Assembly: GCA_030695905.1 (NCBI GenBank)
Contig: JAUYOL010000036.1
Location: forward strand, 118,814-182,813
Direction: 5' to 3'
Origin: Candidatus Omnitrophota bacterium
GTDB taxonomy: Bacteria > Omnitrophota > Gorgyraeia > 2-01-FULL-45-10
Length of the DNA stretch: 64,000 nt
Shown here: positions 23,871-40,248 of the stretch, in pieces
Numbering within the stretch: position 1 is the first letter of the stretch
Layout of the letters: each line of letters opens with the position of its first letter
Program-made: the position numbers and the translations under genes
The notes under the pieces: model-generated
Databases searched by the model: none
What the model was told of the DNA's origin: nothing
Seen by the model: the letters and a program-made list of their open reading frames with translations, nothing else

Positions 23871-24629
23871 TCACCATGCGTGCAAACCGCCGTCAACATA
23901 TAATAAATGTCCGGTAATATATGAGGCGGATTCGGACGCCAGAAACAAAACAGGGCCTACGATATCTTTTTTATCGGCCATTCTTCTCAATGGTACTCTT
24001 GTACTGTATTGTTCTTGAAATAACCTGCTGTGCTTATCCAAAACCCCTCCCGGACAGATGGCATTTACTCTAATATTAAATGGAGCGGCATAACAAGCCA
24101 GATACTTGGTAAAGGTATTTATCCCGCCCTTTATTAATGGATATGACGGGAGGCTTGCGATTTCTGTATTTTTGTATATCCTGAAGTCCGGCGACAAGTC
24201 TCCGTATGTGGAACTGAAATTTATAATCACCCCGTGTTTAGCTTTTTTCATATTTATCAATATCTCTTTGCAACATCTGTAAAATCCTAACAGATGATCC
24301 ATGGTATCCCTTCCTACGATATCCGGATCCACATCTTCGATTCTGCCCTTAGAATTGTCCTGCCTGGGCCAGGCGCAGTTTATCCAAACGTCTATCTTCT
24401 TATCATGAACTATTACATCGGATATAAATCTCCGAATAGACTGAGAGGATGTTATGTCGATCTTTATATAATTTATATTACTTTTATTCCGAAAATTCTC
24501 GGGAACACGGGTACCGACAAAAACTTTAGCGCCGTAGCCGTCAAACGCATTTGCAAGCTCCGTACCGATCAGCCCGGTCCCGCCTATTACGCAAACTACC
24601 TTATCCTTCATATTGAGGAAATCTTTCAT
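23871..24629 (-). CDS. Short-chain dehydrogenase/reductase (SDR)
   Basis: VVCVIGGTGLIGTELA Rossmann motif; YPLIK (YxxxK) then NAICPGG. An alternative start at 24611 (MKDKVV) would shorten the overlap with the upstream gene. Confidence 0.7.
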   Translation of the reverse strand: MKDFLNMKDKVVCVIGGTGLIGTELANAFDGYGAKVFVGTRVPENFRNKSNINYIKIDITSSQSIRRFISDVIVHDKKIDVWINCAWPRQDNSKGRIEDVDPDIVGRDTMDHLLGFYRCCKEILINMKKAKHGVIINFSSTYGDLSPDFRIYKNTEIASLPSYPLIKGGINTFTKYLACYAAPFNIRVNAICPGGVLDKHSRLFQEQYSTRVPLRRMADKKDIVGPVLFLASESASYITGHLLYVDGGLHAW

Positions 24630-25719
24630 TATTTATCTCCTTTTTGAGCCTTTTACAAATCAGTTTTTGGTCGCATCTCGTATAGCATTTATGATCTTTG
24701 GGAAAATCACCGTTTATGTGCCATCTTCTAAAATTTTTATAATCCACACTGTTCCATATCTCTTTTAGGGTCTGACTGTTGGCATTGCCTAAAACCATCT
24801 CGCAATTATAATCCTGCGTGCATGGGACTACAGAGCCGTCAACCATTACAGTCATCGATGTCCACGGAAACTCGCAATACTGTGTTTCGTAATGAGACCT
24901 TGGTTTTCCCGCGTCATCATCCTTATAATACCATTGATTGTCCTGGCTCTTTATATAAGCATAGACATCCCTATCCTTCCAGAGGCCCATAAAGTCATCG
25001 TGCATCTTAACGGAATTTTTTGACCGAGAAAGGTCGAGCATCGTTATAACTATCTTGGTTTTAAGCGATGGGTTCTTTGATTTTGCATTTATAAGCTCGC
25101 GTATCAATTTATACGAACGCGTAAAATCGTTGCTCTTTCCCCTGATCTTCTTGGCGCTTTCGTCGTCGATCGCATCCATGGCGAATTTTATGACTCCGAC
25201 TCCGGCTTCCATCATTTTTATAAATTTATCCACATCTATATTTGCTGGCACGCAGGAGAAATAGGTCGGGATATTATATTTTGAACATAAAGCAATTCTT
25301 TCTACAAGATAAGGGTCCAGCGGCGGCTCACCATAACCGTGCAAGATCAGCGACTTTGATACCGTATAAAAATAAAACGCGTTTTCACTTTTATCCGATG
25401 GATGAATACGATATTCATCTGCGATAAATTTCCAGAAGCTATCCATCGCCTCTTTTTTGTGAGGCATTATCTGTTTTATGACTTTTTCAAAAAGCCCCAT
25501 CTTCATAACCTGCGCGGGACGCCTCATCAGGCTTGTACGCGGGCACATCTTGCATTTCATATTGCAAGCATTGGTCGTTTCGATATTAAAAACACACGGA
25601 TATTCATCTGTATGCTTCCTAAGGATTGCCGACACTTCGGCCTGGCGGATATGGGATTTCATATCGACGATCTTCTTTTTTATTTCCGAAGTGGTTCTAA
25701 AAAAGGATATATCGAACAT
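24601..25719 (-). CDS. Radical SAM enzyme with Cys-rich C-terminal (SPASM/twitch-like) region
   Basis: ETTNACNMKCKMCPR carries CxxxCxxC. Additional C-terminal cysteines in CEFPWTS...VVPCTQDYNCE. Confidence 0.7.
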   Translation of the reverse strand: MFDISFFRTTSEIKKKIVDMKSHIRQAEVSAILRKHTDEYPCVFNIETTNACNMKCKMCPRTSLMRRPAQVMKMGLFEKVIKQIMPHKKEAMDSFWKFIADEYRIHPSDKSENAFYFYTVSKSLILHGYGEPPLDPYLVERIALCSKYNIPTYFSCVPANIDVDKFIKMMEAGVGVIKFAMDAIDDESAKKIRGKSNDFTRSYKLIRELINAKSKNPSLKTKIVITMLDLSRSKNSVKMHDDFMGLWKDRDVYAYIKSQDNQWYYKDDDAGKPRSHYETQYCEFPWTSMTVMVDGSVVPCTQDYNCEMVLGNANSQTLKEIWNSVDYKNFRRWHINGDFPKDHKCYTRCDQKLICKRLKKEINNERFPQYEG

Positions 25720-25723
25720 GTGT

Positions 25724-26845
25724 TTATTTTATCCCCTTTCCGACTTCAAATTTCTCGTGCCAGAGCCCCCATTGATCCTGACGAAAAAGTTTCGGATTGT
25801 ACCATTTATCAAGTATTCTCCAGAATTCAACAGGCTTCATGCCCGTAAAATTCAAGAATGCGTCTACAATACCCTGATCAAGGATCTTGTCGTGTTTTTT
25901 TACATAAGGTATCATTTCCTTGCGTGTCGCGATTCCTGCGCGGATCCAGCGCGATGCCATTTCGGTGGCCGAAGCGTGGCCGAACTTTGGGTATTTCAGA
26001 TACTGGTTCAGCAGATATCCTATCGAGTCGATCTGGTTATATTGCTCTACCGTCCCTTCTCTTATATACTCATGAGCAAGATGCCGGAAGCCCCACCGTT
26101 TCGCGAGTTCATAATTTCGATGGCTGTCCCATGGTACAAAATAGCTCAAATATATCGGGTCGAGCCCATACCCTTCACATTCCTCAAGCGTCGGCTGTTT
26201 GGCTGATTCCAGGTCTCTTTCGGTCAGATCCCCGTCCTTCAGCCATTGGTTCCATGCCGGTTTCACTACATCATTTTTCGACTGCAATTTTGCCGATGGG
26301 GTTTCTTCGTTGTATTTTCCTCCGTATGTATAATTCACATTTTCGCCGTAAATCAACAGGTGCAGCCCTAATTTCATCGCCATTCTGTAAGGGTAGGCAT
26401 AAATCAACGCATCTCCATACCATGTAGGCGACCCGATTTCAATCAATGCCTTCTTCGCCAATATGCGTGTCACATTATGATTCGGTATTATCGAAATAAT
26501 GTCACAATTGAATGTATCGGATAAATTTGCGAGATTTTTTCTTCCGGTCTCGGTCCAGTCTATATTGCCTACCGCGAGAAGAACGGGATTCATCCGCATG
26601 ACTTCTTTCATATACCATACCTGAAAGTGAGAATCCTTCCCTCCCGATACCGCAATCGCGCAATCATAACTATTCCCGTATTTTCCTCTGTACTTACTGC
26701 ATACCTTTTCAAATTTTTTTTTGCGCTTATTCCAGTCGGTTTTTCTTTGTTTGCCATAATTATGGCACGGCGAGCAAACACCGTCCTTTTGAAAGGTTAT
26801 CCCCGGCCTCGTGTCTGGCATCAAACATCTTTTGCAGTATTTCAT
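25724..26845 (-). CDS. N-acetyl sugar amidotransferase (WbuX/PseA-like PP-loop enzyme)
   Basis: N-terminal Zn-ribbon YCKRCLMPDTRPGITFQKDGVCSPC followed by the PP-loop AIAVSGGKDS. The architecture is characteristic of the LPS/NulO acetamidino-forming amidotransferase family. Confidence 0.75.
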   Translation of the reverse strand: MKYCKRCLMPDTRPGITFQKDGVCSPCHNYGKQRKTDWNKRKKKFEKVCSKYRGKYGNSYDCAIAVSGGKDSHFQVWYMKEVMRMNPVLLAVGNIDWTETGRKNLANLSDTFNCDIISIIPNHNVTRILAKKALIEIGSPTWYGDALIYAYPYRMAMKLGLHLLIYGENVNYTYGGKYNEETPSAKLQSKNDVVKPAWNQWLKDGDLTERDLESAKQPTLEECEGYGLDPIYLSYFVPWDSHRNYELAKRWGFRHLAHEYIREGTVEQYNQIDSIGYLLNQYLKYPKFGHASATEMASRWIRAGIATRKEMIPYVKKHDKILDQGIVDAFLNFTGMKPVEFWRILDKWYNPKLFRQDQWGLWHEKFEVGKGIK

Positions 26846-26850
26846 CGAAA

Positions 26851-27549
26851 TTATCTCCTTTTCTTATTTTTTAAAACTAACTCTGCGACGTGAAAATCCC
26901 ATGCCGTATCGATATCAAGCGACCTTTCCTGCGGCATAATGTAAGGTACCGCACCCTTGGGCACAAAAGTACGTTGCTTCAGAAGTGATGAGCAGGTATT
27001 CAGATAGATCGCACCATTTTGTTCGTACAATTCCGGCAACGCCTGCCTGTACATGTATCCGTCATTCGGAGGAATAAAATATTCCAATGAACGTTTTTTA
27101 TTTATGCTGTGTGTTTTATAAGGATATTTTATAATTTCACAGACACTGACAACAGCGAGTGTATTACGATTTTTGGCCAATTTAATGACATTTTCCATAT
27201 CTTCGGTTGTCCTGAAAGGAGATGTCGGCTGAAGCAGCATTATATAGTCCGGGTAACATGCCTCATGTTTTTTCAGCCAATCGATCGCGTGGAGCACGAC
27301 TGAGATATGTGGGGATTCATTTTTTGAAAGTTCTCCGGGGCGCCTGAACGGCACTTCGGCGCCGTGTCGCTTCGAAACCTTTGCGATTTTCTCGTCGTTA
27401 GTAGATACAATTACACGGCTTAAGCCCTTGCATTTCAACGCCGCCTCTATCGTCCATGCAATCAGCGGCTTGCCCGCAAGGATTTTTATGTTCTTCCCCG
27501 GTATGGATTTTGAACCGCCACGTGCCGTAATAAGCCCGATAATCTTCAT
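26851..27549 (-). CDS. neuA: CMP-nonulosonic acid synthetase (acylneuraminate cytidylyltransferase family, short form)
   Basis: MKIIGLITARGGSKSIPGKNIKILAGKPLIAWTI is the classic NeuA/CMP-Kdo-like N-terminus. At 232 aa it lacks the esterase domain. Confidence 0.85.
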   Translation of the reverse strand: MKIIGLITARGGSKSIPGKNIKILAGKPLIAWTIEAALKCKGLSRVIVSTNDEKIAKVSKRHGAEVPFRRPGELSKNESPHISVVLHAIDWLKKHEACYPDYIMLLQPTSPFRTTEDMENVIKLAKNRNTLAVVSVCEIIKYPYKTHSINKKRSLEYFIPPNDGYMYRQALPELYEQNGAIYLNTCSSLLKQRTFVPKGAVPYIMPQERSLDIDTAWDFHVAELVLKNKKRR

Positions 27550-27554
27550 AATCG

Positions 27555-28733
27555 CTATCTCCTAATATATTTTTTGCCGGACATACCTTTATTGTCCGTA
27601 TGATATTCACTGCAAAATTGCTTCTGAATTTCCGTGCACCAGATCTGGGATCCATTGAGTATAGAAATGAACCGCTTCACGCTCTTACCGTCCCCAAAAT
27701 GCGTGGTAGGGGTCTTCGGGACATCCGGTATCTTATTTATAGCGGATGTGATATCCGCTGCCGACTCGCGGACGTTAATGATAGTCTTATAAGCGAATCG
27801 CCCGCTTTGCCGGTTCCCGATATTTATAGACGGGATCCCGTAATACGGCGCCTCCCTGATACCTGAGCTCGAATTGCCGATGATGAATTCACAATTTTTA
27901 AGCAACGTAAGGAATGATTCGAAGCGTATCGAAGGAAATATCCTGAAATTTCGGTTTTTACTCATAAGCTTGAGTTCTCTTATTATAATATCTGACCCGC
28001 TGTCATTATTGGGGTATAATACTATATATTTTTTGCCGGAACTCGCCAGCGCCTTTGTGACCTGCCGGACATTATCGGATAAATCATGCAGATTCGTAGT
28101 TACCGAATGATATATGAATAGCGCGTATTCCTTAAAATCAATTTCGTAGTGCTTCTTGACCGCCGATAAAGCCGGGAGGTAGCCGGAATCCATAAGGTCC
28201 ATGTCCGGGGACCCTATCACATATATGTTTGACTTCTTCTCGCCCATCTGAAGCAGCCTTTTCTTAGCTTCTTCATTCGACACGAAATGTACATGCGCAA
28301 GCTTCGATATCGAATGCCTTATTGATTCATCTATAGTCCCAGACAGTTCGCCGCCCTCTATGTGCCCTACGATAATATTGTTCAATGCTCCGACAACAGC
28401 ACCTGCAAGCGCCTCCACGCGGTCACCATGGACAATTATAAGGTCCGGCCTCGTCGCGGATACATAATCACCGAAGCCATGGATCGTATTCCCGAGTATG
28501 GCATCCATCGAATTGCCGGTTTTCTGATTATAATAACTAAATATATTTTTAAAGCCGGCTTTTATGACTTCGTCTACAGTGCTGCCGTATTTAGGCAACA
28601 TGTGCATGCCGGTTGCGAATATATGGGTTTCGAATGCCTTTTCCTGTTCGAGCGCTTTCATCAAAGGCTTAAGTTTGCCGAAATCGGCACGCGTACCCGT
28701 TAAAAAAATGATCTTTTTACTTTTCATAGACAT
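27555..28733 (-). CDS. neuC: UDP-N-acetylglucosamine 2-epimerase, hydrolysing (NeuC-type)
   Basis: IIFLTGTRADFGKLKPLMKAL...HIFATGMHM...VHGDRVEALAG, NeuC/LegG-like. 392 aa. Confidence 0.8.
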   Translation of the reverse strand: MSMKSKKIIFLTGTRADFGKLKPLMKALEQEKAFETHIFATGMHMLPKYGSTVDEVIKAGFKNIFSYYNQKTGNSMDAILGNTIHGFGDYVSATRPDLIIVHGDRVEALAGAVVGALNNIIVGHIEGGELSGTIDESIRHSISKLAHVHFVSNEEAKKRLLQMGEKKSNIYVIGSPDMDLMDSGYLPALSAVKKHYEIDFKEYALFIYHSVTTNLHDLSDNVRQVTKALASSGKKYIVLYPNNDSGSDIIIRELKLMSKNRNFRIFPSIRFESFLTLLKNCEFIIGNSSSGIREAPYYGIPSINIGNRQSGRFAYKTIINVRESAADITSAINKIPDVPKTPTTHFGDGKSVKRFISILNGSQIWCTEIQKQFCSEYHTDNKGMSGKKYIRR

Positions 28734-29766
28734 GCTCCCATTTCAACTGCCTGTTCTTCTTAATGCAGCATTTCGCCTTTTTTCCGAGAAGCGCGCTTAA
28801 GTGCCCTGCTTTTATCTCGCCTGTTCCAGGGCGCTTAACCCAGATGTTTTCTTTAGTCAGTTTTTCTCCTGCATCGATATCACGTATCGCGACCACACAG
28901 GCATACGCAAAATCTATCGTTGGTTGTTCCTCTTTTAAAATAGTTTTGCTGCCACCTGATGCCGAATGTATTATACGGCTGCCTGTAATCAATTGTCTGA
29001 GTTCACCGGGATCCATAGAGATAGCTATATCCGGCCCCGGCCAATCTTTATCGGATGTAAAATGTCTTTCAAGGATACTGGCTCCCAAAGCTACGGCCGC
29101 TAAACACGGAAATATGGTAAATGAGTGGTCCGATAGCCCGAGCACAGCATTCGGAAAATGCTTTTTGAGTTCGGCCAGCGCGCCAAGCCTTATTTTGCCG
29201 GGAGGTGTGGGATACATGGATGTGCAATGTAAGAGAGCATACTGCACTTTATTCTGCTCCAGAATTTTCACGCTTTTTCTGATAGAATTGATATTGTTCA
29301 TGCCCGTACTTAATATCACGGGCTTCCCGAAACCGGCAATATATTCTACAAGCGGATAATTATTGCATTCTCCGGAGCCGATTTTATAAGCGCCTACCTT
29401 CATGCGCTTCAGACGATCGGCTGCTTCGCGCGAAAAAGGCGTAGACAGATAAATCATACCTTTTTTATCCGTATATGCTTTTAGTTCCTTATCCCCTTCT
29501 TCCGATAATGCGCACCTGACCATGATATTCCAGATCGATTCTTTTGCGTTAGCTGGCACCACGCCGTTATAGATCATTTCATCTTCTATTACATGCGCCT
29601 GAAATTTAACACATTCACAGCCTGCAGCCACCGCATCGTCGACCATTTTCCTGGCTTTAGCGACGCTGCCTTCGTGATTAATTCCGATCTCGGCTATCAC
29701 GAGCGGTGGGTAATCTTCTCCGATCCTGCGGCCCGCAATATTAATTTCCGGTTTTTTTGGTTTCAT
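28717..29766 (-). CDS. neuB: N-acetylneuraminate (nonulosonic acid) synthase, NeuB family, with C-terminal SAF domain
   Basis: PLVIAEIGINHEGSVAKARKMVDDAVAAGCECVKFQ (NeuB TIM-barrel N-terminus), then LGLSDHS, then a C-terminal antifreeze-like domain. Confidence 0.85.
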   Translation of the reverse strand: MKPKKPEINIAGRRIGEDYPPLVIAEIGINHEGSVAKARKMVDDAVAAGCECVKFQAHVIEDEMIYNGVVPANAKESIWNIMVRCALSEEGDKELKAYTDKKGMIYLSTPFSREAADRLKRMKVGAYKIGSGECNNYPLVEYIAGFGKPVILSTGMNNINSIRKSVKILEQNKVQYALLHCTSMYPTPPGKIRLGALAELKKHFPNAVLGLSDHSFTIFPCLAAVALGASILERHFTSDKDWPGPDIAISMDPGELRQLITGSRIIHSASGGSKTILKEEQPTIDFAYACVVAIRDIDAGEKLTKENIWVKRPGTGEIKAGHLSALLGKKAKCCIKKNRQLKWEHVYEK

Positions 29767-31250
29767 GTATTTTTATTTCCCTGTTTTATTTTTTTAAATA
29801 CTTTTACGAGGCCTTTATAAAACATTTCGAATATTACGCAGCCACCCTGCATTAACCTGCGTATATCACAAACAGAACGTATCGTCCTGATATTTTCCCA
29901 CCATATCGCAGGGCTCAAATAATATTCAAGGTTCGCGCGCCTGTGCCAATAACGCATCTTATCAAGTCCAAAATTGGGGTTCACATATACGGGATTATCA
30001 AAATTCAACGAAAGATAATCGTGCCACTTGTCGACCTTGCGCAGCCCTCCGGTACGCTTACAGCTTTCATTTAATCCTGTCCCCGGATAGGGGACCGGCA
30101 GCCAGAATACCGATATCGGCGCTTTCATCTTTTTCGCGCATCTGATCGTGCGGCGGACCATGTCTTCGTTCTCATTCGGAAGGCAGATTATGAAATTATT
30201 CAGGCAGCGGAAACCGGCCTCGCGGACCCATCGAACACCGCGCATCTGCTCGTCTATAGTTATATTTTTATTCACAAAATCCAGCGTCTCCTGATTGCCC
30301 GATTCTACTCCTATGGCGATCTGTCTTCCGCCGGCTTTGTACATCATTTTAAGTAGCTCCGGGTCAACACAGTCGGCACGCGTATTACATGACCATAGTA
30401 GCCCCAGATCCGCCTCAACCATCTTTTTCATTAATTTCATCGTAAACTCACGGTTTATAGTAAAAGTGGAATCCTGGAAATATACACCGCGCGCCTTTTT
30501 CTCAAATTTTAAAATTTTCAATTCCTCTACAATGCGTTCCGGACTGTAAAAACGTATTTTTTTACCGAGAATTTTTGACGCGCCGCAATATGTGCAGCTA
30601 TATGGGCATCCCCTTTGCGTCATCACGGAATAATTCGGGAGCACCACATACTGCGTCATATGGGGCACGTAGCGTTTGAGGTCCAAGTCCGAATAAAAAC
30701 CTAACGGCAGGCTGTCAAGGTCCATGACAAACGGGCGCTGTTCGTTAATAATAATTTTTTCTCCTTCACGATATACCAATCCCGCTATCTTTGACCATTC
30801 ATTTCCTCCGGACAGTTCCGACAAAAATTCATCCATCGCATGTTCGCCTTCATGGCGTATGATAAAATCCAACTCCGGACACTGCTGCATGCTGAGTTCC
30901 GGTAGCATCGTTACATGAATATTGCCCATCACGACTTTTGAACTCGGCAGTGCTTCTTTAACGATTTTTGCCGTTTCGAACGCATAATCCGCGGTCGGAG
31001 TATATACAGATAATCCGACAACATCGTAAGATCTCTTCTTTAAGTATTGTTTCAATGAATCGGCGACAAAATCGCCGAACTGCATATCAATAAAATCAAC
31101 ATCGTGCTTCTTGCTCTTGAGCCAGGAATAAATCGAGATAACACCCATCGGCGGAAGATGGCCCTGCAAGGATGACACGTCTCCCCATGCCGCTTTAACA
31201 GGGCTTAATGGTTCAAGTAACAATGTCTTTAATTTTTGGCCGTTTTTCAT
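29763..31250 (-). CDS. Cobalamin-binding (class B) radical SAM enzyme
   Basis: VMGNIHVTMLPE in the B12 domain; RGCPYSCTYCGAS carries CxxxCxxC. Confidence 0.8.
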   Translation of the reverse strand: MKNGQKLKTLLLEPLSPVKAAWGDVSSLQGHLPPMGVISIYSWLKSKKHDVDFIDMQFGDFVADSLKQYLKKRSYDVVGLSVYTPTADYAFETAKIVKEALPSSKVVMGNIHVTMLPELSMQQCPELDFIIRHEGEHAMDEFLSELSGGNEWSKIAGLVYREGEKIIINEQRPFVMDLDSLPLGFYSDLDLKRYVPHMTQYVVLPNYSVMTQRGCPYSCTYCGASKILGKKIRFYSPERIVEELKILKFEKKARGVYFQDSTFTINREFTMKLMKKMVEADLGLLWSCNTRADCVDPELLKMMYKAGGRQIAIGVESGNQETLDFVNKNITIDEQMRGVRWVREAGFRCLNNFIICLPNENEDMVRRTIRCAKKMKAPISVFWLPVPYPGTGLNESCKRTGGLRKVDKWHDYLSLNFDNPVYVNPNFGLDKMRYWHRRANLEYYLSPAIWWENIRTIRSVCDIRRLMQGGCVIFEMFYKGLVKVFKKIKQGNKNT

Positions 31251-31256
31251 ATTTAT

Positions 31257-33116
31257 CTATTTCCGGCCTGCCATTACAAATAGCTGAAAGCCCCATTTAG
31301 GCAGGCACAGATTAAATGCCGCATACGTGGCCGATGCCAGTATCTTCTGTGAAAAACTGTATTCTTTTCCAGAAAGAAAAGATTCACGTATTTTATCGGG
31401 ACGCAAATTAATCATGCGTTTATACAGATTAAAAAACGGGAAGCCCCACGCCTCGAGCCTGATCACATCAAGGCCTTCGTTCTTCAACGCATCCTCTATC
31501 TCTTTCGGTTTAAAATGCTTTTTATGCCCTACTCGCCTGTCGATTTCAAACATAGGGCCGCACGGAACAGTTATAAAAAGCCACTTGCCTGTCATTGATG
31601 CCAAACTTTTGACGGCGGCCCGGTAATCGTCGCAATGCTCTATGACTTCCATACATATCACGGCATCGAATTTGTCGCCAAGCGCTTCCTTATTGAGGTC
31701 TATCTTCGAAAAACTCATGCCCGGAAAATTAACACGGTTTGACGCTATGACAGCATCAGAGATATCAGCGCCCACCAGCCTGGCATCCGGCATTAAACGG
31801 TGCGCATCCAACAATAATTCTGCGTTTCCGCAGCCAACGTCAAGGATACTACCCGGCGATACCGAAGAAAGCCATGAAACGATCTTTTTTCTCCTCATGC
31901 GCGGCGCCGGAGAATGCTTGACCATGTCTCTCCACTCTTGCCATGCAAAATCATAAAACACCTCGGAGTTTTTCTGCCTTGAGCCCGCCGTTAAATTCAT
32001 CTTTGTTCTTTTCGCTGTCATGCTCCATGTCGTACCATAAGTATTTTCAAGTTTGTCGATAGATAATCCGGCCTGTTCGGCGAGTTTACGTACTTCGTCT
32101 CTACTAAAATGATATGAAACCGGCGCATACTTTATCAGGCTGAAACAGGATGACTTTATAAGCTTGAAATTGCTTTTTGACCATAACATCATATGGTCAA
32201 ATAACGGCAATTTTTTGCAGATGCGCTCGGGAAACAGGAAATTCACCGGCAAATAGAACAATTTGATCAATAGAAATATAAAAATAGCCGGAAAAATAGA
32301 AATAAATTTCCGGCCACCAAGCGGTATCTGACGAATTATGCCCTTCAGAGGCTCAACGACATGTGTCATAATGAAATTATTCTCATAGCTATAAACACAT
32401 ACCGCGACGGTTCCTCCCTGAACCAGAACATTCGCGAGAGCAAAAAAAGCTCCGCGCTTATCAATAACATGTTGCAGCGCATGGTCACATATTGAAATAT
32501 CGGCTATACCGCTACGTAACGGATTACACAATATATCACACCTGACCAGTAGAAGATCTATATTTTTATCTATGAGCTCTTTGACTCGGTAAATCTCATC
32601 GCCCGCTTCAGTCACTATAACCAGGCCGGGACTATTTTTTGATACATGATATGCTTCACGGCCGGTTCCGCCGCACCAGATAACGACTTTCCTGCCCCGG
32701 TACTCTTCAGGTTCTATCCGTATAAATTCCCTAAAGCTTGAAGGCCCGTTAAAATCGTCTTTTTCAAATTCACTTTTATCCCACTTTACGCCAACACCCC
32801 GCTGGTAACCAAGACCATTGGATGCCTTTTGTGTCAATAAAGATTCATCCAATAAACTACCGACGGTTTTCTTAAAAATAAAATTAATCGAATCACAAAT
32901 TATTTTTTCATGATCATTCAAAAAATGAGGAAGCAGTGAATTTTTAAAAAATATACCTATGCCGTCAATGACCGGATAGGACTCGCCACAACGCTCGCAT
33001 TGAAGAACCCCGTTTTCAATAAAGTCGCCGCTTGCATGTGAAATACGATTGTCAGCCAACTTAAGGGCGCCGCCGCATTCCATACATTCCAACATTGATA
33101 TATGTGAAAGCTTCAT
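31257..33116 (-). CDS. Fusion protein: Trm112-like Zn-ribbon plus two class-I methyltransferase domains
   Basis: N-terminus CMECGG...CERCGESYPVIDGIGIF (Trm112-like). VVIWCGGTGREA (first Rossmann MTase-like domain) and ILDVGCGNAELLLD...VICMEVIEHC (second MTase). The start is taken at M10 (33116), adjacent to the upstream stop. The track ORF extends to 33143. Confidence 0.6.
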   Translation of the reverse strand: MKLSHISMLECMECGGALKLADNRISHASGDFIENGVLQCERCGESYPVIDGIGIFFKNSLLPHFLNDHEKIICDSINFIFKKTVGSLLDESLLTQKASNGLGYQRGVGVKWDKSEFEKDDFNGPSSFREFIRIEPEEYRGRKVVIWCGGTGREAYHVSKNSPGLVIVTEAGDEIYRVKELIDKNIDLLLVRCDILCNPLRSGIADISICDHALQHVIDKRGAFFALANVLVQGGTVAVCVYSYENNFIMTHVVEPLKGIIRQIPLGGRKFISIFPAIFIFLLIKLFYLPVNFLFPERICKKLPLFDHMMLWSKSNFKLIKSSCFSLIKYAPVSYHFSRDEVRKLAEQAGLSIDKLENTYGTTWSMTAKRTKMNLTAGSRQKNSEVFYDFAWQEWRDMVKHSPAPRMRRKKIVSWLSSVSPGSILDVGCGNAELLLDAHRLMPDARLVGADISDAVIASNRVNFPGMSFSKIDLNKEALGDKFDAVICMEVIEHCDDYRAAVKSLASMTGKWLFITVPCGPMFEIDRRVGHKKHFKPKEIEDALKNEGLDVIRLEAWGFPFFNLYKRMINLRPDKIRESFLSGKEYSFSQKILASATYAAFNLCLPKWGFQLFVMAGRK

Positions 33117-35002
33117 TTGCACCGCCTGTACTGCAGGCTCCAATTGATAAATTGGAGTATCCCTAAAAGCATGAACCCGGCGTTAACGGCCCCGTGCTTA
33201 TGCTCATCCCATAACTTGTTCACTTCGTCCCATTTTAGATACGGTACCGACGATTTAGCGCCGGAAAGATAATCCCCGAAAATATTGCTCATCGGCCCGG
33301 CTTCCCTGAACCATTTATCGACCGGAGGTAAAAACCCCGCCTTTGGCCTCGAAAATGATTCTTTAGGCGCCCTGTCCGCGATCGCCTCGCGAAGTATCCG
33401 CTTACCCCTGAGCCGATAACGTTTTGCCTCGTCCGGGAGGTTCAGGCAAAACTCCACCAGCTGCTTGTTTAGAAGAGGCACTCGCACCTCAAGGCCGTTG
33501 GCCATGCTCATCCTGTCCACTTTTGCCAAAATACTCGGAAGATGAAACTTAAGGTCGGCATGCTGGCGGGCGGTCAGATAAGACCTTTCGGACGGCACCT
33601 CTTTCATCAATTCGGCATATTCGCCCACCGGATCGAGTTTTTCCGCATCACGGAAGAAATCAGGATCATAAAGACGTTTTTTCATAGCCGGAGAAAAGAT
33701 GCGGCGAAACGTAGCGTGATCCCTTCCGCCGCATTCTTCCGAAGCATCTAAAAGGCGTTCTGCCGCCATTCTTGCGCCATAACGGCTGTTGTCCGACGGC
33801 AAATATCGCGATAAGGCCCTCATCGATCTTCTGATCATTCCGGGTAACATCCTCATACAAGGCGTGATCTCCCCGGCCATGTACGTATCATAGCCGGCAA
33901 GTAATTCATCGCCTCCGTCCCCGGCAAGAGCAACGGTTACTTTCGCGCGTGTAAACTTTGACAGCTGGTACACCGGAAAACAGGATGCGTCCGCGAGAAG
34001 TTCTTTCATAGCACCGAGCGTTTCGTTTATCGCATTTTCGGTCCACGCAAAAACCAATGATTCATTCGACACCTTAAGGTGCCTTGCATAATGTTCGGCG
34101 GCAGGTATCTCGCTGAACTTACGATCTCTAAATCCGAGAGTGAATGTCGCGGGTTGCTTTCCGGCCTCCACGGCAGACAGCGCTACGGCATACGAATCGA
34201 GCCCTCCCGAAAGAAAAAGTCCTAGCGGCGCGTCAGAAATGAGCTGCCGTTTTACTGCCGATAAAAGTAACTCATTGAAGCGGCCTGTTAATTTAGATGA
34301 CAGCGGCTCCGCACATGCACCGTATTCCGGCTTCCAATAACAGCTTAATTTCGGCTGTCCGTCGCTCACTGTCAACATGCACCCGGGCGGAAGTTGATAT
34401 ACACCCTTCAATCCCGATCTCGGCGCGGGCAGATAGTTGAATGTAAAATATACATCGAGATCCTGCGGATTATATTCAGGGCACGGGTTCAATGCGCCGA
34501 AAAGCGCCGGTAATTCCGAAGCAAAAAATACCTGGCCCTGATAATCCGTATAAAAAAGAGGTTTTACGCCGAAATGGTCGCGGACAAGAAAAAGCTTCTT
34601 GTCCTTTCTGTCAAACAGGGCAAAAGCAAAAATACCATCGATCTTTCCCAGGCATGCCCATCCCCACTCCTGCCAGGCCGCGAGCAGTACCTCCGTGTCT
34701 GAATTTGATACGAAACGGTGCCCCTTGGATTCGAGCTCCTTACGAATCTCCATAAAGTTATAGATCTCTCCGTTATAACTTATCACAAACCTTTTGTCCG
34801 GAGTAAACATGGGCTGATGTCCGGCCGAGGTCAGATCAAGCACGGACAAACGCGTGTGCCCCAGGAATAAACCCGGCTCCACGTGCATTCCCTTATCATC
34901 CGGCCCCCTGTACGAGAGACGGTCAACCATGGCTTCGAGGCCGTGCTGCGACCAGCTCCTCCGGCTGTCATTATAAGAATAGATCCCTGTGATTCCACAC
35001 AT
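33113..35002 (-). CDS. Asparagine synthase (glutamine-hydrolysing)-family amidotransferase, AsnB-like
   Basis: Starts MCGITGIY (Cys2 Ntn-glutaminase nucleophile). A central PP-loop LSGGLDS region. 629 aa. Confidence 0.8.
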   Translation of the reverse strand: MCGITGIYSYNDSRRSWSQHGLEAMVDRLSYRGPDDKGMHVEPGLFLGHTRLSVLDLTSAGHQPMFTPDKRFVISYNGEIYNFMEIRKELESKGHRFVSNSDTEVLLAAWQEWGWACLGKIDGIFAFALFDRKDKKLFLVRDHFGVKPLFYTDYQGQVFFASELPALFGALNPCPEYNPQDLDVYFTFNYLPAPRSGLKGVYQLPPGCMLTVSDGQPKLSCYWKPEYGACAEPLSSKLTGRFNELLLSAVKRQLISDAPLGLFLSGGLDSYAVALSAVEAGKQPATFTLGFRDRKFSEIPAAEHYARHLKVSNESLVFAWTENAINETLGAMKELLADASCFPVYQLSKFTRAKVTVALAGDGGDELLAGYDTYMAGEITPCMRMLPGMIRRSMRALSRYLPSDNSRYGARMAAERLLDASEECGGRDHATFRRIFSPAMKKRLYDPDFFRDAEKLDPVGEYAELMKEVPSERSYLTARQHADLKFHLPSILAKVDRMSMANGLEVRVPLLNKQLVEFCLNLPDEAKRYRLRGKRILREAIADRAPKESFSRPKAGFLPPVDKWFREAGPMSNIFGDYLSGAKSSVPYLKWDEVNKLWDEHKHGAVNAGFMLLGILQFINWSLQYRRCK

Positions 35003-35016
35003 AAATATGCCCTATA

Positions 35017-36864
35017 TTACTTTATGCCGCTGATTATCCTCTCATGGCTTGAAATGAAATATGAATATGCGACGCGAATCGTCGGAAAGATTGCCAACAG
35101 TATCAATACCGTTATGATCACGAAATGCGCCTTAAACCTTTTGGATACCAGATAGACAAATCCGGCACCGCCGACTAAATATAGCCAGAAAACAAACGGA
35201 TTCAGAAAACGATTGAGGTTCCAGTATGTGGTCCGTGTTGAGCCGACAAATAGAGTAGCGGATGCCATCACTAAAGCGGCAATAAAGAAACTGAATAAAA
35301 ATTTGCTTATTTCGGCATTGCTATTCATGTCTTTCCAAAATGTAGATTTTTTACCTGCCAGCAACATAAATATCGTGGCAGGCACGGCGAACTCCAAAAC
35401 GAGATACCCGAATCCGGTAAGATCCATCGATATTTTACGCACCGGGTACAGCCACAGCCCTATATCGTTTAAACTTCTGAAATAGACGGTCCCGTTAGAA
35501 ACCAGGTTCAGCGCACCCTTGCTCATAGATAAATAAAAGTATATAGGCAGTCCCAGAAGCAAGCCGATCGAAGTGCCGATAACTATATTTCTGATTTTCA
35601 ATTTCTGCCGGTCTATAAGTAAGTAGAAAAACAGAAACACTGTATATGTAAAAAGCAGATATTCTTCTCCGTTACCCACGGCCGCTATCATCAGCAATGA
35701 TGCCAATATCAGTAACGGCAAATCCTTAAACCTTGTAAATACTATGATCATGCTGAGTAAAAGCGCCGCATAACCCTTTACGCTATCAATATAAGTGGTG
35801 AGCCCCCAAGGCACATAAAGCGGAGACAGCCTTGATCTTAAATGCATCGTAAATATAGCCCATGATTTAAAATCCAGCGGGAAAAAATCCCTGATGTGGC
35901 CATGGCTGATAACAAGGTGTTTTAGGCCATTAAAATAAGTAAAGAGCTCCCCGAGCAGTGCAACAAATATCAAAGAGCCCAGCGCGTATGAATGTTTTTT
36001 GAATAGCATCTTTGAAAATATATACGTGCATATATACAACCCCGCATGCCCTATCAGCAACTCTAAATATACCGAGGCCCCGAGGTCTATATCAATAAGG
36101 CGGGCCCATGCGGGCGGCACTATGAGCGACACGATATGCGCGCCGCCGGATGAGTGGCCCGGAAGATTATCGAAAGATATGAAATCATTAGCCAACAATA
36201 ATCTGGCAAAATCAAAATAAGCGTCCGGCTGGCCGTGAGGATATTCGGCATTCAGGAAAAGTGCGTTATTGATAATCAACAGAAGTATCACTGAGATTAC
36301 CTGCAGCTCTTCTGATGACGGCCTCTCGCAGACAGCCCGCCATAAATCAGCGCCTTTTCTTCTATATAACACATAACAGCACGTGATAAACAATACCGAT
36401 ATCAGCAACGCGGTAAAAGCCCCTTTTGTCACGCCAAGCAATATTACTGTTGCAACGGCCAGTACGTTGAAAATAAGACTGCCTGTAATTATAGAAACCA
36501 ATATAGTAACGATGCTGCCCGAATGATCACCGGACAGACGGAGTGCCGGAAAATAACCTAACATGAAATAAAAAAACATCATGATCAGGAATTTATATGT
36601 ATCGTAAGCCTGGCATTTGGTATAAATCGAAATGAACATGATTGATACCGCTGCTACAAGAGCCGCAATTAACGGCAGGGCCCTGTTTCCCGGTTGAAGT
36701 AATCCTAATATTATTACCAAAACGGCAAATACTACCAGTGATAATAACGCCATAGAAGCTGCCGCCGTAAGGTTGTAAGATAAAAATAAGATTGCAAGGA
36801 TAATAAGGGCAGCCAGCAAATAGGCCAACACAAAAGGTTTGTATATAGAGGTATTATTGTTCAT
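35017..36864 (-). CDS. Large polytopic membrane protein, function unknown (candidate GT-C-type glycosyltransferase or polymerase)
   Basis: About 616-626 aa with 14 or more hydrophobic segments. The start is probably the ATG at 36864, which makes an ATGA overlap with the upstream stop. Confidence 0.35.
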   Translation of the reverse strand: MNNNTSIYKPFVLAYLLAALIILAILFLSYNLTAAASMALLSLVVFAVLVIILGLLQPGNRALPLIAALVAAVSIMFISIYTKCQAYDTYKFLIMMFFYFMLGYFPALRLSGDHSGSIVTILVSIITGSLIFNVLAVATVILLGVTKGAFTALLISVLFITCCYVLYRRKGADLWRAVCERPSSEELQVISVILLLIINNALFLNAEYPHGQPDAYFDFARLLLANDFISFDNLPGHSSGGAHIVSLIVPPAWARLIDIDLGASVYLELLIGHAGLYICTYIFSKMLFKKHSYALGSLIFVALLGELFTYFNGLKHLVISHGHIRDFFPLDFKSWAIFTMHLRSRLSPLYVPWGLTTYIDSVKGYAALLLSMIIVFTRFKDLPLLILASLLMIAAVGNGEEYLLFTYTVFLFFYLLIDRQKLKIRNIVIGTSIGLLLGLPIYFYLSMSKGALNLVSNGTVYFRSLNDIGLWLYPVRKISMDLTGFGYLVLEFAVPATIFMLLAGKKSTFWKDMNSNAEISKFLFSFFIAALVMASATLFVGSTRTTYWNLNRFLNPFVFWLYLVGGAGFVYLVSKRFKAHFVIITVLILLAIFPTIRVAYSYFISSHERIISGIK

Positions 36865-37976
36865 TTCAAATCCAGGCTGGGCATCATCTTGAAGCATGGC
36901 ACCCTGTTCAGTAAAATATTAAAAGACGTATCCTGCGCCCAACAGATACAATTATTTTTATGCAAGCGGATCTCTTCGCGCTGACGGATCATTTCTGGGC
37001 TGTTCCATAGTTGCCGTATTGATAAATTATTGATATTCCCCATGCTTGGATAATTAATATTTGCGGTACAATGAAACACGTCGCCATTGGGCAATATCTG
37101 AAGCCGTAAAAACGGCGACCAGCACCTTACCTCCCTGGCGAGTTGTTCCTTATTGAACCAATAACGCGGTATAAGCCTGAAATAATCATTATTGAATTCG
37201 CTGTTCTTGCCGGTTAATCTATCAAAAATATTTTCTACATTTTTTTGTTCATCCGGCCTGAACATAAATTGCTCCATTGCCTCCGCCTCTTTATTATGCG
37301 GCCCATATATATAGCCGCCGACTATAGGCTGGAAACTCGTGACATCCGCGAGCGACTTCAGCCTCGCGTCTATACTGCCCAACCTATGGATATTACCTTT
37401 ATGGACAACTGTGGTGGACTTGATCAGCGGCCGCCTGCCTTTACGTTTTGACTTTATATATTTTATCGCGTTCTCCAGTTTCTCATATAAACCCGGCGAA
37501 TTCCTGATGCTATCATGCTCATCGGGTTTGTCGCTGTCGATACTGACAACTATATAATCCACCTTGTTTTTTATGATCTCGTCCGACTTTTCTCTTAGCA
37601 AAAGCCCGTTCGTGACAATATACACTATGACATTGCGCTCTTTGAGGATCTTGATCACATCAAAAAGATGCGGCCATAACAACACCTCTCCCCCGGTAAA
37701 CCCCACAGAATATGTTTTGGCGTCGATTATTTGGCGCGCTATCTCTTTGGCGCGCTCAGCGCCGACCTGTTCCGGAAACCGTTTTTTCAAACCGTGAGTC
37801 GAGCAAAATTTACAATACATGTTACAGTCATAAGTAACAAGCCATGTCACGAAAAGCGGGCCCCTTTTCGAAGGACGATTCAGTACCCTAGTCAAGACAA
37901 TACTGTAGACAAATGTTATGAAGGCCCTCGCCAGGCTCATGTTTACCGGTACGGGAAATATTCTTTTAAAATTCAT
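36861..37976 (-). CDS. Radical SAM enzyme with SPASM-like C-terminal Cys cluster
   Basis: VTYDCNMYCKFCST carries CxxxCxxC. C-terminal CWSPFLRLQILPNGDVFHCTANINY. The start is taken at the internal Met (37976), just after the upstream stop. Confidence 0.7.
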   Translation of the reverse strand: MNFKRIFPVPVNMSLARAFITFVYSIVLTRVLNRPSKRGPLFVTWLVTYDCNMYCKFCSTHGLKKRFPEQVGAERAKEIARQIIDAKTYSVGFTGGEVLLWPHLFDVIKILKERNVIVYIVTNGLLLREKSDEIIKNKVDYIVVSIDSDKPDEHDSIRNSPGLYEKLENAIKYIKSKRKGRRPLIKSTTVVHKGNIHRLGSIDARLKSLADVTSFQPIVGGYIYGPHNKEAEAMEQFMFRPDEQKNVENIFDRLTGKNSEFNNDYFRLIPRYWFNKEQLAREVRCWSPFLRLQILPNGDVFHCTANINYPSMGNINNLSIRQLWNSPEMIRQREEIRLHKNNCICWAQDTSFNILLNRVPCFKMMPSLDLK

Positions 37977-37977
37977 T

Positions 37978-39234
37978 TTAACCATTATACTTCTCAATTG
38001 CCCCGACAATATAGTCCAGCTGGCCCTCACTCATACCATAATAGATGGGGACAAAAAGCGTCTGCTCCTTAACATGGGCCGCCGACATACATTCAAAACT
38101 ATATTGGCTGAACGCCTTCTCGGCGCATAAAAGGCTTAAGAGAATTTTAGAGCTGTCTATGCCGTATCCGGCAAGAAAACGTTTTAATTTATCCGTATCC
38201 TTAACAAGCAGCGGAAACAGCCAAAATGAATTTAAGGCATGCTCCGTTACGGGCGGAAGCAAAACATTCGAATGAGATCTTAAACTGCGGTATAAATAAA
38301 TACCGTGCCTTATACGTTCCTTCTCTCTGCCTTCCAGCGTTGTTAACTGGCTTAACCCCATTACCGCCTGCTGCCATGTAAATTTTACGAGAAAGTCTTC
38401 CGGCATCGATTCCCTCAACATGACGGTCTTATTCGTTTTCTGGTACAGGGAGAAATAATCTCCGAAAGGCATGGCCATGCGCATAAGAGGAAAAACAATG
38501 CGCTGAAACAGGGCCGGATTCACGGCTGCCTTGATAATAATATTTTTTATCGCTTCCAGTATAAGCGGTAATTTTTTGGCCCGTTGCAGCCTTAGACTCT
38601 CCTCCTTCAGCCTGTTCAACAGCGCGGTATCTTTCGACAATACCATCCCCCCTGACAGGGTGCAGACAGGCTTCAACAGGCTCAGGCTGAAGATAGCCGC
38701 CTGGCCAAAAACTCCGAGTGGGCGGCCACTATATTGAGAGCTTAACGCCTGAGAGCAATCCTCTATAAAAGGGACGCCGCGCCGTTTTGATATTTCCATG
38801 ACCTTATCCATATCCGTTGCGTATCCACACAAATGAGTGATCAATATGAGCGCGGTATTACTATTAACCTTTCTTTCAAGGTCGTCACAATCGATTGTAT
38901 AGGCATTTGGCAGGAGGTCTACTACCACCGGATTAAAACCCGCCAAACGTATCATATTGACAAAATCCGCTACATGTATAGCCGATATAATAACTTCTCC
39001 TCCGGCTTTAAGCCCCATGTTCTTCAGCAAAAAGTAGAAGGCCACGCGAGCTTTTGAAAAACACACTCCGGGAGGAAGATTGTATCGCAGGCCGAACCGG
39101 CTTTCAAATTCAGAGACCGATCCTTGCTGTTCAGGCCGCGGCTTAAATACAAGTAAATTTGCCAGGAACGAAATAATATCCTTTAAAGGAAGTGTCGGTC
39201 TAATCCTGGGTATCGAGCTCATGATTATATCCAC
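37978..39234 (-). CDS. DegT/DnrJ/EryC1-family PLP-dependent aminotransferase (divergent)
   Basis: IFSLSLLKPVCTLSGGMV (Lys-containing PLP motif region). N-terminal fold-type I AAT pattern. 418 aa. Confidence 0.65.
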   Translation of the reverse strand: MDIIMSSIPRIRPTLPLKDIISFLANLLVFKPRPEQQGSVSEFESRFGLRYNLPPGVCFSKARVAFYFLLKNMGLKAGGEVIISAIHVADFVNMIRLAGFNPVVVDLLPNAYTIDCDDLERKVNSNTALILITHLCGYATDMDKVMEISKRRGVPFIEDCSQALSSQYSGRPLGVFGQAAIFSLSLLKPVCTLSGGMVLSKDTALLNRLKEESLRLQRAKKLPLILEAIKNIIIKAAVNPALFQRIVFPLMRMAMPFGDYFSLYQKTNKTVMLRESMPEDFLVKFTWQQAVMGLSQLTTLEGREKERIRHGIYLYRSLRSHSNVLLPPVTEHALNSFWLFPLLVKDTDKLKRFLAGYGIDSSKILLSLLCAEKAFSQYSFECMSAAHVKEQTLFVPIYYGMSEGQLDYIVGAIEKYNG

Positions 39235-39252
39235 CGTTTCTTTTAAACGGCC

Positions 39253-40248
39253 CTAGTCCTTAACGAACAAAAAGCGCAAAATAAATTTTGAGTAAAGCTG
39301 ATTTACTAAAAATAACAGGACCTTATCCGATTCCGGGCCGGCCAAATAGTCTTTAAAATCCATCCATGAAACTTTCTTCATTTTCCTGATCTCTGCCGGC
39401 AGTCCAAAGCCCGCCACAATCGTATTTCTGGTTATTGCCGACAAGGCCTGCCCGCGGTAGATCACTATATCCTTCCCTCTATACTTTCCGGGAGCGCTTA
39501 ATGACAGGTCCTGAAAAAGCAATTCGGGCTCTGATAGGACACGGTCCATCATAGCGCCGGAAGCGGTATCCCCCCCTCCGGTAATTACGGCCAGGATGTT
39601 GTTTATGTAGCGCAGTATATCCTGCAAAAGCCGCTTTGTGATCTTCTCTTCTATCGGCATTGAATCATACTTATAGGCCGAAGCCCTGATAAAACTGTTT
39701 CCCGGTACATTACCGCTCAAGACCGCCCCCGGAGTTATTACCGTATGCGGCCCTATCGTGGTACACGGCAATATCACGGTAGACATACCTGTCCAGGAGC
39801 ATTCTCCTATAATTACATCGCCCTTCTTTGCGGGGTATCCCTGGACCCTCGGTAGGTATTCTCCGTGCGTATAGATAGTATTTCTCGGGCCAAAACAGGA
39901 ATAATCCTTCATAGTGATGGAGCAATTCGGGAAACATTCAATAAGGCATTGCACCGAAACAACATTCCTGTTTTCAGACTTAAAAGTTCCTTTGCCGTAA
40001 ATTTTCGTAAAAACCGCGATCCTGCTCTTTTGGCCCAGCCTAAACTCTTTTAGCAGGACAATCATGGTAAAAGGGTCTATACAGGCATCATCGCCGATAC
40101 TCAATTGATCTACCATGATAAAACTAAAAGCCCCTATCTTGACTCTTTTGCCGATCTTAAAGCCCATGCACCTCCACAACGCTATCTTCAGAAAAGCAGG
40201 GAGAAAAAAAGCGATAACCTGAATAAAATATTTAAAGTGTTTTTTCAT
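39253..40248 (-). CDS. Hexapeptide-repeat (left-handed beta-helix) acyl/acetyltransferase with N-terminal TM helix and C-terminal extension
   Basis: Repeated [LIV]-G-x-x-x-x hexads (IGDDACIDPFTMIV...IIGECSWTGMSTVILPCTTIGPHTVITPGAVLSGNV). An N-terminal hydrophobic segment. Confidence 0.6.
   Translation of the reverse strand: MKKHFKYFIQVIAFFLPAFLKIALWRCMGFKIGKRVKIGAFSFIMVDQLSIGDDACIDPFTMIVLLKEFRLGQKSRIAVFTKIYGKGTFKSENRNVVSVQCLIECFPNCSITMKDYSCFGPRNTIYTHGEYLPRVQGYPAKKGDVIIGECSWTGMSTVILPCTTIGPHTVITPGAVLSGNVPGNSFIRASAYKYDSMPIEEKITKRLLQDILRYINNILAVITGGGDTASGAMMDRVLSEPELLFQDLSLSAPGKYRGKDIVIYRGQALSAITRNTIVAGFGLPAEIRKMKKVSWMDFKDYLAGPESDKVLLFLVNQLYSKFILRFLFVKD

Follow-up and report, generated by a model that had tools for sequence, protein, structure and literature searches.

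A nonulosonic acid module with a stand-alone N-acetyl sugar amidotransferase in a large glycan locus of an Omnitrophota bacterium

INTRODUCTION

A 64-kb stretch of DNA from a Candidatus Omnitrophota bacterium (here called the window; all coordinates are window positions, and every open reading frame [ORF] that is named lies on the minus strand) carries neuB-, neuC-, and neuA-like genes for a nonulosonic acid (NulO) in a row with a gene for an N-acetyl sugar amidotransferase (NASAT). Which sugar does this row make, and which of the surrounding genes serve it? An earlier note on this DNA had read some 16 kb as a single module for a 5,7-diamino NulO of the legionaminic (Leg) or pseudaminic (Pse) type. 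The analysis described here, which was conducted entirely in silico, indicates otherwise: the 16 kb are three independently conserved cassettes plus one gene for a membrane protein, and the NulO module proper is the six genes at 23871-29766, encoding NeuB, NeuC, NeuA, the NASAT, a radical S-adenosylmethionine (SAM) enzyme, and a short-chain dehydrogenase/reductase (SDR).

From its genes, this module would make a CMP-linked sugar of the N-acetylneuraminic acid (Neu5Ac) type, convert it to the 5-acetamidino form, and then tailor it by redox chemistry, a reading to which we give about an even chance of being right. A plain route from UDP-GlcNAc through N-acetylmannosamine (ManNAc) to Neu5Ac is favored over the Leg/Pse route because of the similarity of NeuB to a sialic acid synthase, the missing Leg and Pse enzymes, the genomic context of the epimerase subtype, and the contrast with the Leg-type gene row of another Omnitrophota genome.

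RESULTS

Conserved neighborhoods as evidence

All of the ORFs named in the earlier note were present at their positions, although public gene calls place the start codon a few codons later for some window genes. Family calls were made from Pfam and NCBIfam/TIGRFAM profile scores relative to the curated cutoffs. Three window proteins, DegT 37978 among them, proved 100% identical to NCBI proteins from a Candidatus Omnitrophota metagenome-assembled genome (MAG), and the window matches a 171-kb Logan contig. The entire 64 kb proved to be one minus-strand glycan locus that extends past both ends of the window. With glycan genes so tightly packed throughout, adjacency alone is weak evidence, and conservation of neighborhoods elsewhere was used instead; the comparison loci retrieved for this are labeled with L numbers (e.g., L087). 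Enzyme families, catalytic motifs, and conserved neighborhoods are matters of direct observation.

NeuB, NeuC, and NeuA

The three genes are in the order NeuB-NeuC-NeuA and are joined by overlaps or 5-nt gaps, and the profile scores (Table 1) confirmed all three families, in keeping with the contiguous trio described earlier. NeuB matched the Neisseria meningitidis NeuB structure 1xuu with 398.9 bits and 54.6% identity, and residues E25, F112, E134, H215, E234, H236, and R314 of the N. meningitidis enzyme are all kept in the HMMER alignment to 1xuu. We take H215 and H236 to act at the metal and R314 to be functional as well. Residues E25, E134, and E234 have been named as catalytic (PMC8208679). 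The PseI model gave 229.6 bits, well under its cutoff of 340.25. The NeuA-like enzyme scored under the cutoff of the PseF model (165.8 versus 205.7 bits), and its nearest solved relatives are the CMP-Neu5Ac synthetases 6ifd (147.6 bits) and 1eyr (112.7 bits).

Assigning the substrate from overall NeuB identity was rejected: the Escherichia coli K1 NeuB (the K1 NeuB and NeuC references were taken from UTI89) is nearer to a NeuB in Leg context, that of another Omnitrophota MAG (L110), than to the window NeuB (47% versus 34.5% identity), and the window NeuB is 36% identical to the L110 protein. The window NeuC is 35% identical to Acinetobacter baumannii LegG, 33% to human GNE, and 30% to K1 NeuC. 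A loop motif of the epimerase was also rejected as a substrate marker, as K1 NeuC and A. baumannii LegG share the same insertion there.

Among 80 genome loci retrieved with NeuB, whose best members are 57 to 70% identical to the window protein and scattered over many phyla, 65 encode an epimerase 49 to 61% identical to the window NeuC ("type a"). Only 2 of these 65 loci have a PF02719 dehydratase within 6 kb, compared to 9 of the 10 loci with the other epimerase subtype (Fisher p = 4e-9), and a DegT-family aminotransferase was found within 6 kb of the window-type epimerase in 3 of 65. The subtype does not simply map onto substrate, because K1 NeuC is closer to A. baumannii LegG than to the window enzyme.

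Two further features of NeuB loci were seen. A PF02719 4,6-dehydratase occurs together with the distinct epimerase subtype and a NeuB 60 to 66% identical to that of the window in five loci from candidate phyla and others (L004, L008, L009, L025, and L034); an aminotransferase was detectable only in L008, about 6.4 kb from NeuB. This gene content hints at a 9-deoxy, nonaminated NulO in loci of this type. A polysaccharide pyruvyl transferase (PF04230, 53.5 bits; positions 12206-13369 of L048) is a frequent extra in NeuB/NeuC/NeuA cassettes, with homologs in L020, L036, L040, L042, L007, L016, L021, and L104 and none in the window.

Neu type or Leg/Pse type

The enzyme set for a 5,7-diamino NulO, as the legionaminic acid pathway has been defined (PMC6137143), was not recovered: no window gene reached the equivalog cutoff for LegB, LegC, PglD/LegH, PseB, PseC, or PseI. 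The best LegB score in the window was 83.5 bits (cutoff 475), for gene 14269, whose product was identified as a CDP-glucose 4,6-dehydratase (455 bits). With LegC (TIGR04181, cutoff 420), the DegT proteins 15453 and 37978 scored 210.8 and 91.3 bits; with PseC (cutoff 423.5), the window best was 270.3 bits and DegT 37978 scored 101.6. The best PseB score, 193.8 bits for the PglF-like dehydratase, was under the cutoff of 407.75, and the hexapeptide protein 39253 scored 26.3 bits with the NeuD/PglB/VioB model (cutoff 160.8). In tblastn searches of the window and both flanks (about 85 kb, E < 0.1), neither PglD-like queries from L040 and L110 nor E. coli NeuD found a match, and no PtmE was found.

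The reading of the earlier note has to be weighed as a rival. The module could make a legionaminic-type 5,7-diamino sugar (e.g., Leg5Am7Ac) if the PglF-like dehydratase 5490, with an aminotransferase and an acyltransferase of the locus, formed UDP-diNAcBac or some similar 2,4-diamino sugar, which the enzymes of genes 27555-25724 would then epimerize and hydrolyze, condense, activate with CMP, and amidinate. The dehydratase that the earlier note had included in the module is real, and at least three further aminotransferases in the locus could, with it, feed such a precursor. Its place in the module was not borne out: it lies 16.5 kb away beside a priming transferase, and the strongest DegT gene (15453) adjoins the CDP-glucose 4,6-dehydratase. 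The note had also used DegT 37978 and the hexapeptide protein 39253 as stand-ins for LegC and LegH. They are not, because the radical SAM/DegT cassette to which they belong recurs in three other phyla without NeuB or NeuA nearby (see below).

A canonical Leg-type row from the same phylum looks quite different. In L110 (11741-17497), an SDR, a DegT protein, a CBS-nucleotidyltransferase, a PglD-like protein, a 334-residue NeuB, a methyltransferase, and an epimerase are encoded in succession. A Sulfurimonas locus (L040) was rejected as a Leg-type reference, since its upstream GFO-type oxidoreductase, aminotransferase, and acetyltransferase form a WbpB/E/D pattern.

Several points weigh against the Neu5Ac-type reading, and some of them speak for the Leg-type one. 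To our knowledge, the acetamidino NulOs established in glycans are all of the 5,7-diamino (Leg or Pse) types. The window NeuB scored 359.1 bits with TIGR03569 (N-acetylneuraminate synthase), under the cutoff of 399.65, which the scores of its relatives straddle (407.7 in L048 and 397.6 in L040). Some of its nearest relatives (63 to 70% identity) come from candidate-phyla loci in which a dehydratase is found along with the other epimerase subtype; in L030 and L078, members of its clade occur with dehydratases and LegG-like epimerases. No alignment positions in NeuB were found that separate the partners of the two epimerase subtypes, and the true UDP-GlcNAc enzyme of K1 is, as noted, closer to LegG than to the window NeuC. 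The call between Neu and Leg types rests on gene context rather than on a reference phylogeny with characterized LegI, LegG, PseA, and PtmG, and Neu and Leg synthases are intermixed in a large-scale tree (PMC8208679). The solved NASAT (PMC10607449) comes from Legionella pneumophila, whose O-chain is an acetamidino legionaminic acid. Finally, the role guessed for the radical SAM/SDR pair rests on a 45-bit match to BtrN and two sampled contexts. Weighing these points against the missing equivalogs, the remote dehydratase, the near absence of dehydratases beside the window NeuC subtype, and the low identity to the NeuB of the Omnitrophota Leg row, we consider the Leg-type explanation unlikely, though by no means negligible, and the Neu5Ac-type reading is retained.

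A stand-alone amidotransferase linked to NulO genes

The NASAT directly downstream of neuA was confirmed. It has no Pfam match and scores over the cutoff of its TIGRFAM model (Table 1), and it has an intact PP-loop (SGGKDS, residues 67 to 72) and Cys4 motif (C4-x2-C7 ... G-V-C24-x2-C27). The family has been defined by the PP-loop SGGxDS and the tetracysteine motif CxxCxn[GN]xCxxC in the structural study of the Legionella enzyme (PMC10607449); the match to that L. pneumophila protein (8wex) was 95.5 bits.

Two classes of NASAT were distinguished near the NeuB genes, one accompanied by HisF and HisH and one alone. Class I proteins (L040, L042, L056, and L078) are 27 to 29% identical to the window protein and have HisF/HisH partners; in L040, WbuZ (269.3 bits) and HisH (221.7 bits) are encoded beside the NASAT. 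The window protein falls into class II, which was sampled in 24 loci, comprising 21 metagenome loci retrieved with the NASAT as sole bait (65 to 84% identity) and 3 genome loci, with identities to the window NASAT of 57 to 84% overall. The lack of an adjacent HisH/HisF pair, which the earlier note had pointed out, holds more widely: tblastn found neither in the 85 kb, and neither was found near the NASAT in any of the 24 class II loci. A NeuA or NeuB homolog lies within 3 kb of the NASAT in 20 of the 24, the exceptions being mostly short contigs, and the conserved partner of this NASAT is therefore the NulO pathway, as had been claimed from adjacency. A DegT gene occurs within 8 kb in only 3 of the 24 loci, and a dehydratase was scored in 2 of the 24. 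In several loci, the NASAT gene is embedded in the neu cassette, with NeuB on one side and NeuC or NeuA on the other; the order in L087 is NeuB, NASAT, TylF-type methyltransferase, NeuC, NeuA, flanked by Wzm/Wzt and with no dehydratase or aminotransferase. In the set retrieved, the combination of class II NASAT and neu cassette was found in Omnitrophota, in Firmicutes genomes, and on unassigned metagenome contigs.

The proposal that an AsnB-like enzyme supplies the ammonia found no support, as AsnB was absent from the neighborhood of the NASAT in all 24 class II loci and the pair of AsnB with a B12-binding radical SAM enzyme recurs without adjoining NulO genes.

The conserved linkage also bears on a second explanation, in which NeuB, NeuC, and NeuA make ordinary CMP-Neu5Ac and the NASAT acts on another N-acetyl sugar, such as a 6-deoxy-hexosamine formed via the PglF-like enzyme. 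Parallels exist in WbuX (L-FucNAm, E. coli O145) and WbpG (Pseudomonas aeruginosa O5), which are assigned to hexosamines (PMC10607449), and genes like FnlA/FnlB/FnlC, for UDP-L-FucNAc, are present as well in two class II loci (L036 and L048), with the WbpB/E/D-like genes in the class I locus L040; the dense packing of the window, moreover, makes mere adjacency of NASAT and neu genes weak evidence. Against this, most of the 20 class II loci with nearby NeuA or NeuB lack a dehydratase or FnlABC, no FnlA/B/C set was found in the window, and the NASAT sits inside the neu cassette in several loci. We judge a hexosamine substrate to be distinctly improbable and continue with the NulO as the substrate of the NASAT.

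The closest relatives of the window NASAT (81 to 84% identity; L086, 1392-3515, and L087, 5092-5931 and 12034-13317) adjoin Wzm/Wzt genes with a Wzt C-terminal domain. In these two loci, the amidinated sugar may cap the end of the chain, in contrast to the window, where it would belong to a Wzx/Wzy repeat unit.

The radical SAM/SDR pair

Downstream of the NASAT gene, family scores (Table 1) upheld the calls of a radical SAM enzyme (24601) and an SDR (23871). The former has the CX3CX2C motif as CNMKCKMC at residue 52, and among solved structures it matches only BtrN, in the auxiliary-cluster domain (45.2 bits); its family numbers 1,370 homologs at E ≤ 1e-20, with about 50% identity across phyla. 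The SDR has the motifs GGTGLIG and YPLIK and scored under the cutoffs for PRK09186 (167.9 bits) and PtmA (129.9 bits). Homologs of the SDR adjoin NeuB in 9 of the 80 loci. In a Deltaproteobacteria MAG (L113), a 58% identical radical SAM homolog is followed by an overlapping 64% identical SDR homolog and then by a CMP-transferase and NeuB, and in Roseospira (L112), a 51% identical homolog of 24601 lies in a flagellin glycosylation locus. The pair is counted as part of the NulO module. Our guess is that it would oxidize a hydroxyl group and then reduce it, resulting in an epimerization.

Separate cassettes upstream

The B12-binding radical SAM, AsnB, DegT, and hexapeptide genes upstream of neuB are present, with family assignments as described earlier, but they belong to cassettes of their own. 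Homologs of the B12-binding enzyme 29763 (52 to 61% identity) occur near AsnB genes in Magnetospirillum sp. UT-4 (L109), in the other Omnitrophota MAG (L110), and in a Thermodesulfobacteriota MAG (L111), with NeuB within 8 kb only in L110, which suggests that the B12-binding radical SAM enzyme and AsnB form a recurring tailoring set. The AsnB protein begins with Met-Cys-Gly. Between these two genes lies what had been called a dual-methyltransferase fusion; one methyltransferase domain is clear (Table 1), and the second, in the middle region, is borderline, with a Methyltransf_11 score of 20.5 bits that falls just under the cutoff of 21.2. The membrane protein gene that follows AsnB (35017-36897) had no Pfam or NCBIfam match.

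The third cassette is centered on a second radical SAM/SPASM enzyme (36861), which has weak BlsE/viperin matches, and DegT 37978. Homologs of the two proteins (44 to 62% and 46 to 68% identity, respectively) are encoded side by side in glycan loci of Elusimicrobia (L106), Magnetospirillum aberrantis (L107), and Oligoflexia (L108), and no NeuB or NeuA was found within 8 kb of the pair in these three loci. The Oligoflexia locus also has the hexapeptide protein (46%), placed after the DegT/radical SAM pair, as well as a GT2 glycosyltransferase (61%) and a B12-binding radical SAM enzyme (48%). The pair, contained in the region 36861-44726 of the window, appears to be uncharacterized. We propose that the upstream cassettes tailor other parts of the glycan.

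The surrounding glycan locus

The window, L082, and L083 together give the glycan locus a length of at least 105 kb, all on a single strand. In the 85 kb examined, radical SAM genes number at least 13, of which nine encode B12-binding domains, and SAM methyltransferases about nine; also encoded are two Wzx flippases, one Wzy_C protein, and the PglC-like priming transferase. This gene content suggests a surface glycan that is methylated to an unusual degree. By position only, the LIC12162-family transferase and the Wzx flippase downstream of the module (Table 1) are candidates for the transfer and export steps; the transferase was rejected as a conserved NulO partner, since none of the 80 genome loci was found to have a homolog of it close to NeuB.

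The window also encodes four large polytopic membrane proteins (35017-36897, 44723-46882, 11460-12878, and 46879-48180), three without a family match and one PMT_2-like, which are possible glycosyltransferases of the GT-C type or polymerases. The locus further includes a carbamoyltransferase gene and a GHMP kinase/nucleotidyltransferase pair, as well as genes for a papain-family cysteine protease (3421-4209) and a transglutaminase-like protein (53388-54101), both of which are unusual beside sugar biosynthesis genes.

Table 1. Genes of the NulO module and its surroundings, with supporting profile scores
Product	Position	Strand	Scores and remarks
PglF/CapD-like 4,6-dehydratase	5490-7349	-	Polysacc_synt_2, 390.5 bits; outside the NulO module
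PglC-like priming phosphoglycosyl transferase	7404-7964	-	Bac_transf, 194.5 bits
LIC12162-family transferase	20569-22329	-	TIGR04331, 402.2 bits (cutoff 225); immediately downstream of the module
Wzx-type flippase	22320-23852	-	Polysacc_synt/MatE; immediately downstream of the module
SDR	23871-24629	-	adh_short_C2, 111.4 bits; overlaps the radical SAM gene by 29 nt
Radical SAM/SPASM enzyme	24601-25719	-	SPASM, 57.0 bits; Radical_SAM, 46.8 bits
Stand-alone NASAT (class II)	25724-26845	-	TIGR03573, 309.5 bits (cutoff 203.2)
CMP-nonulosonate synthetase, NeuA-like, 232 aa	26851-27549	-	PF02348, 80.8 bits
Hydrolyzing UDP-sugar 2-epimerase, NeuC (type a)	27555-28733	-	TIGR03568, 422.7 bits (cutoff 235.9)
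NeuB-type NulO synthase, 349 aa	28717-29766	-	NeuB (PF03102), 242.7 bits; SAF (PF08666), 39.5 bits
B12-binding radical SAM enzyme	29763-31250	-	Stop overlaps neuB start by 4 nt
Trm112-like zinc ribbon/methyltransferase fusion	31257-33143	-	Methyltransf_11, 59.3 bits (residues 434-515); Trm112p, 25.6 bits
AsnB-type glutamine amidotransferase/adenylating enzyme	33113-35002	-	Asn_synthase, 239.1 bits; GATase_7, 153.4 bits
Polytopic membrane protein, 626 aa	35017-36897	-	About 15 hydrophobic segments; not mentioned in the earlier note
Second radical SAM/SPASM enzyme	36861-38030	-	SPASM, 40.2 bits; CNMYCKFC motif
Divergent DegT-family aminotransferase (not LegC or PseC)	37978-39234	-	DegT, 162.8 bits
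Hexapeptide-repeat acyltransferase	39253-40248	-	Hexapep, 44.3 bits; N-terminal hydrophobic segment

DISCUSSION

The cluster belongs to a known class, that of NulO clusters with a NASAT, and is set apart by the lack of HisH/HisF, by a cassette without diamino-sugar enzymes, and by the conserved radical SAM/SDR pair. From the gene content, we infer the substrates, the order of steps, and the product as follows. NeuC (27555) would hydrolyze and epimerize UDP-GlcNAc to ManNAc, which NeuB (28717) would condense with phosphoenolpyruvate to a Neu5Ac-type NulO, and NeuA (26851) would activate this acid with CTP to the CMP-sugar. The NASAT (25724) would then use ATP and ammonia, its PP-loop adenylating the acetamido oxygen and ammonia displacing the adenylate to leave the 5-acetamidino group, without a HisH/HisF glutaminase. 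The radical SAM/SPASM enzyme and the SDR (24601 and 23871) would then introduce another redox change into the sugar. In Campylobacter jejuni, peaks consistent with CMP-Neu5Am have been reported from mass spectrometry, and it has been proposed that the amidotransferase may prefer nucleotide sugars as substrates (bioRxiv 10.64898/2026.04.20.719630).

A bolder proposal can be put forward tentatively, as a possibility that falls short of even chances: a HisH/HisF-independent subtype of NASAT, residing in plain NeuB/NeuC/NeuA cassettes, would make Neu5Am, a charge-neutral sialic acid that no glycan is yet known to contain, which in this bacterium would be altered by the radical SAM/SDR pair and perhaps C-methylated to a higher-carbon ulosonic acid by the B12-binding radical SAM enzyme, the gene for which overlaps neuB. 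A methylated acetamidino NulO, the product suggested earlier, may also be formed.

Acetamidino groups carry a positive charge that cancels the negative charge typical of sialic-acid-like sugars, which alters encounters with phages, predators, and immune lectins, and the only sugars on which they have so far been established are the 5,7-diamino sugars of Campylobacter, Legionella, and similar pathogens. Should a Neu-type sugar be amidinated here, this would widen the chemistry known for true sialic acids, give the mass-spectrometric signal reported in 2026 a genetic handle, and demonstrate an amidotransferase that functions without the usual glutaminase partners. If the ordinary reading holds, the module is one more sialic acid cluster within an unusually large glycan locus. 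The two uncharacterized radical SAM cassettes, one pairing a radical SAM/SPASM enzyme with an SDR beside NulO genes and the other combining a radical SAM/SPASM enzyme with a DegT aminotransferase and an acyltransferase, are defined targets for enzymology.

Among known systems, the CMP-Neu5Ac pathway (N. meningitidis SiaC; E. coli K1 neuDBACES) has the same three enzyme families in one row and, like the window row, needs and has no dehydratase, aminotransferase, or N-acetyltransferase. The window row differs in continuing with the NASAT, a radical SAM enzyme, and an SDR, and its NeuB and NeuC are only 30 to 35% identical to the K1 proteins, with no NeuD homolog in the 85 kb. PseA/PtmG of Campylobacter and the Legionella NASAT belong to the same amidotransferase family, with the PP-loop SGGxDS and the Cys4 zinc motif, and are likewise encoded beside NulO genes; PtmG is credited with forming the acetimidoylamino form of CMP-linked sugars. 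In contrast to these systems, the window pathway has no diamino-sugar enzymes, and a HisH/HisF-type partner is absent from the 85 kb; the window NASAT is also about 95 residues shorter than the Legionella enzyme (373 versus 468 residues), and the comparison with Campylobacter was made by enzyme family and gene setting.

WbuX/WbuY/WbuZ of E. coli O145 and WbpG/HisH2/HisF2 of P. aeruginosa O5 also include NASATs. Neu5Ac and L-FucNAm occur together in the E. coli O145 antigen, whose gene cluster was sought by DNA searches of E. coli genomes without a match, and the gene mix in L036 and L048 (neu genes, NASAT, and FnlA/B/C-like genes) is comparable to that of O145; the WbuY/WbuZ glutaminase-cyclase pair is absent from the window and from all 24 class II loci.

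For the radical SAM enzymes, the nearest point of comparison is BtrN, the radical SAM 2-deoxy-scyllo-inosamine dehydrogenase, with its partner, the aminotransferase BtrS. The similarity of BtrN to 24601 is very low (45 bits, in one domain), and BtrN serves an aminoglycoside pathway, whereas 24601 lies in a glycan locus. BtrN is likewise a radical SAM enzyme with an extra Fe-S domain that acts on sugar-like alcohols. By analogy, the 36861/37978 pair resembles BtrN/BtrS in its logic and may copy it, with a radical dehydrogenation followed by transamination by the DegT aminotransferase.

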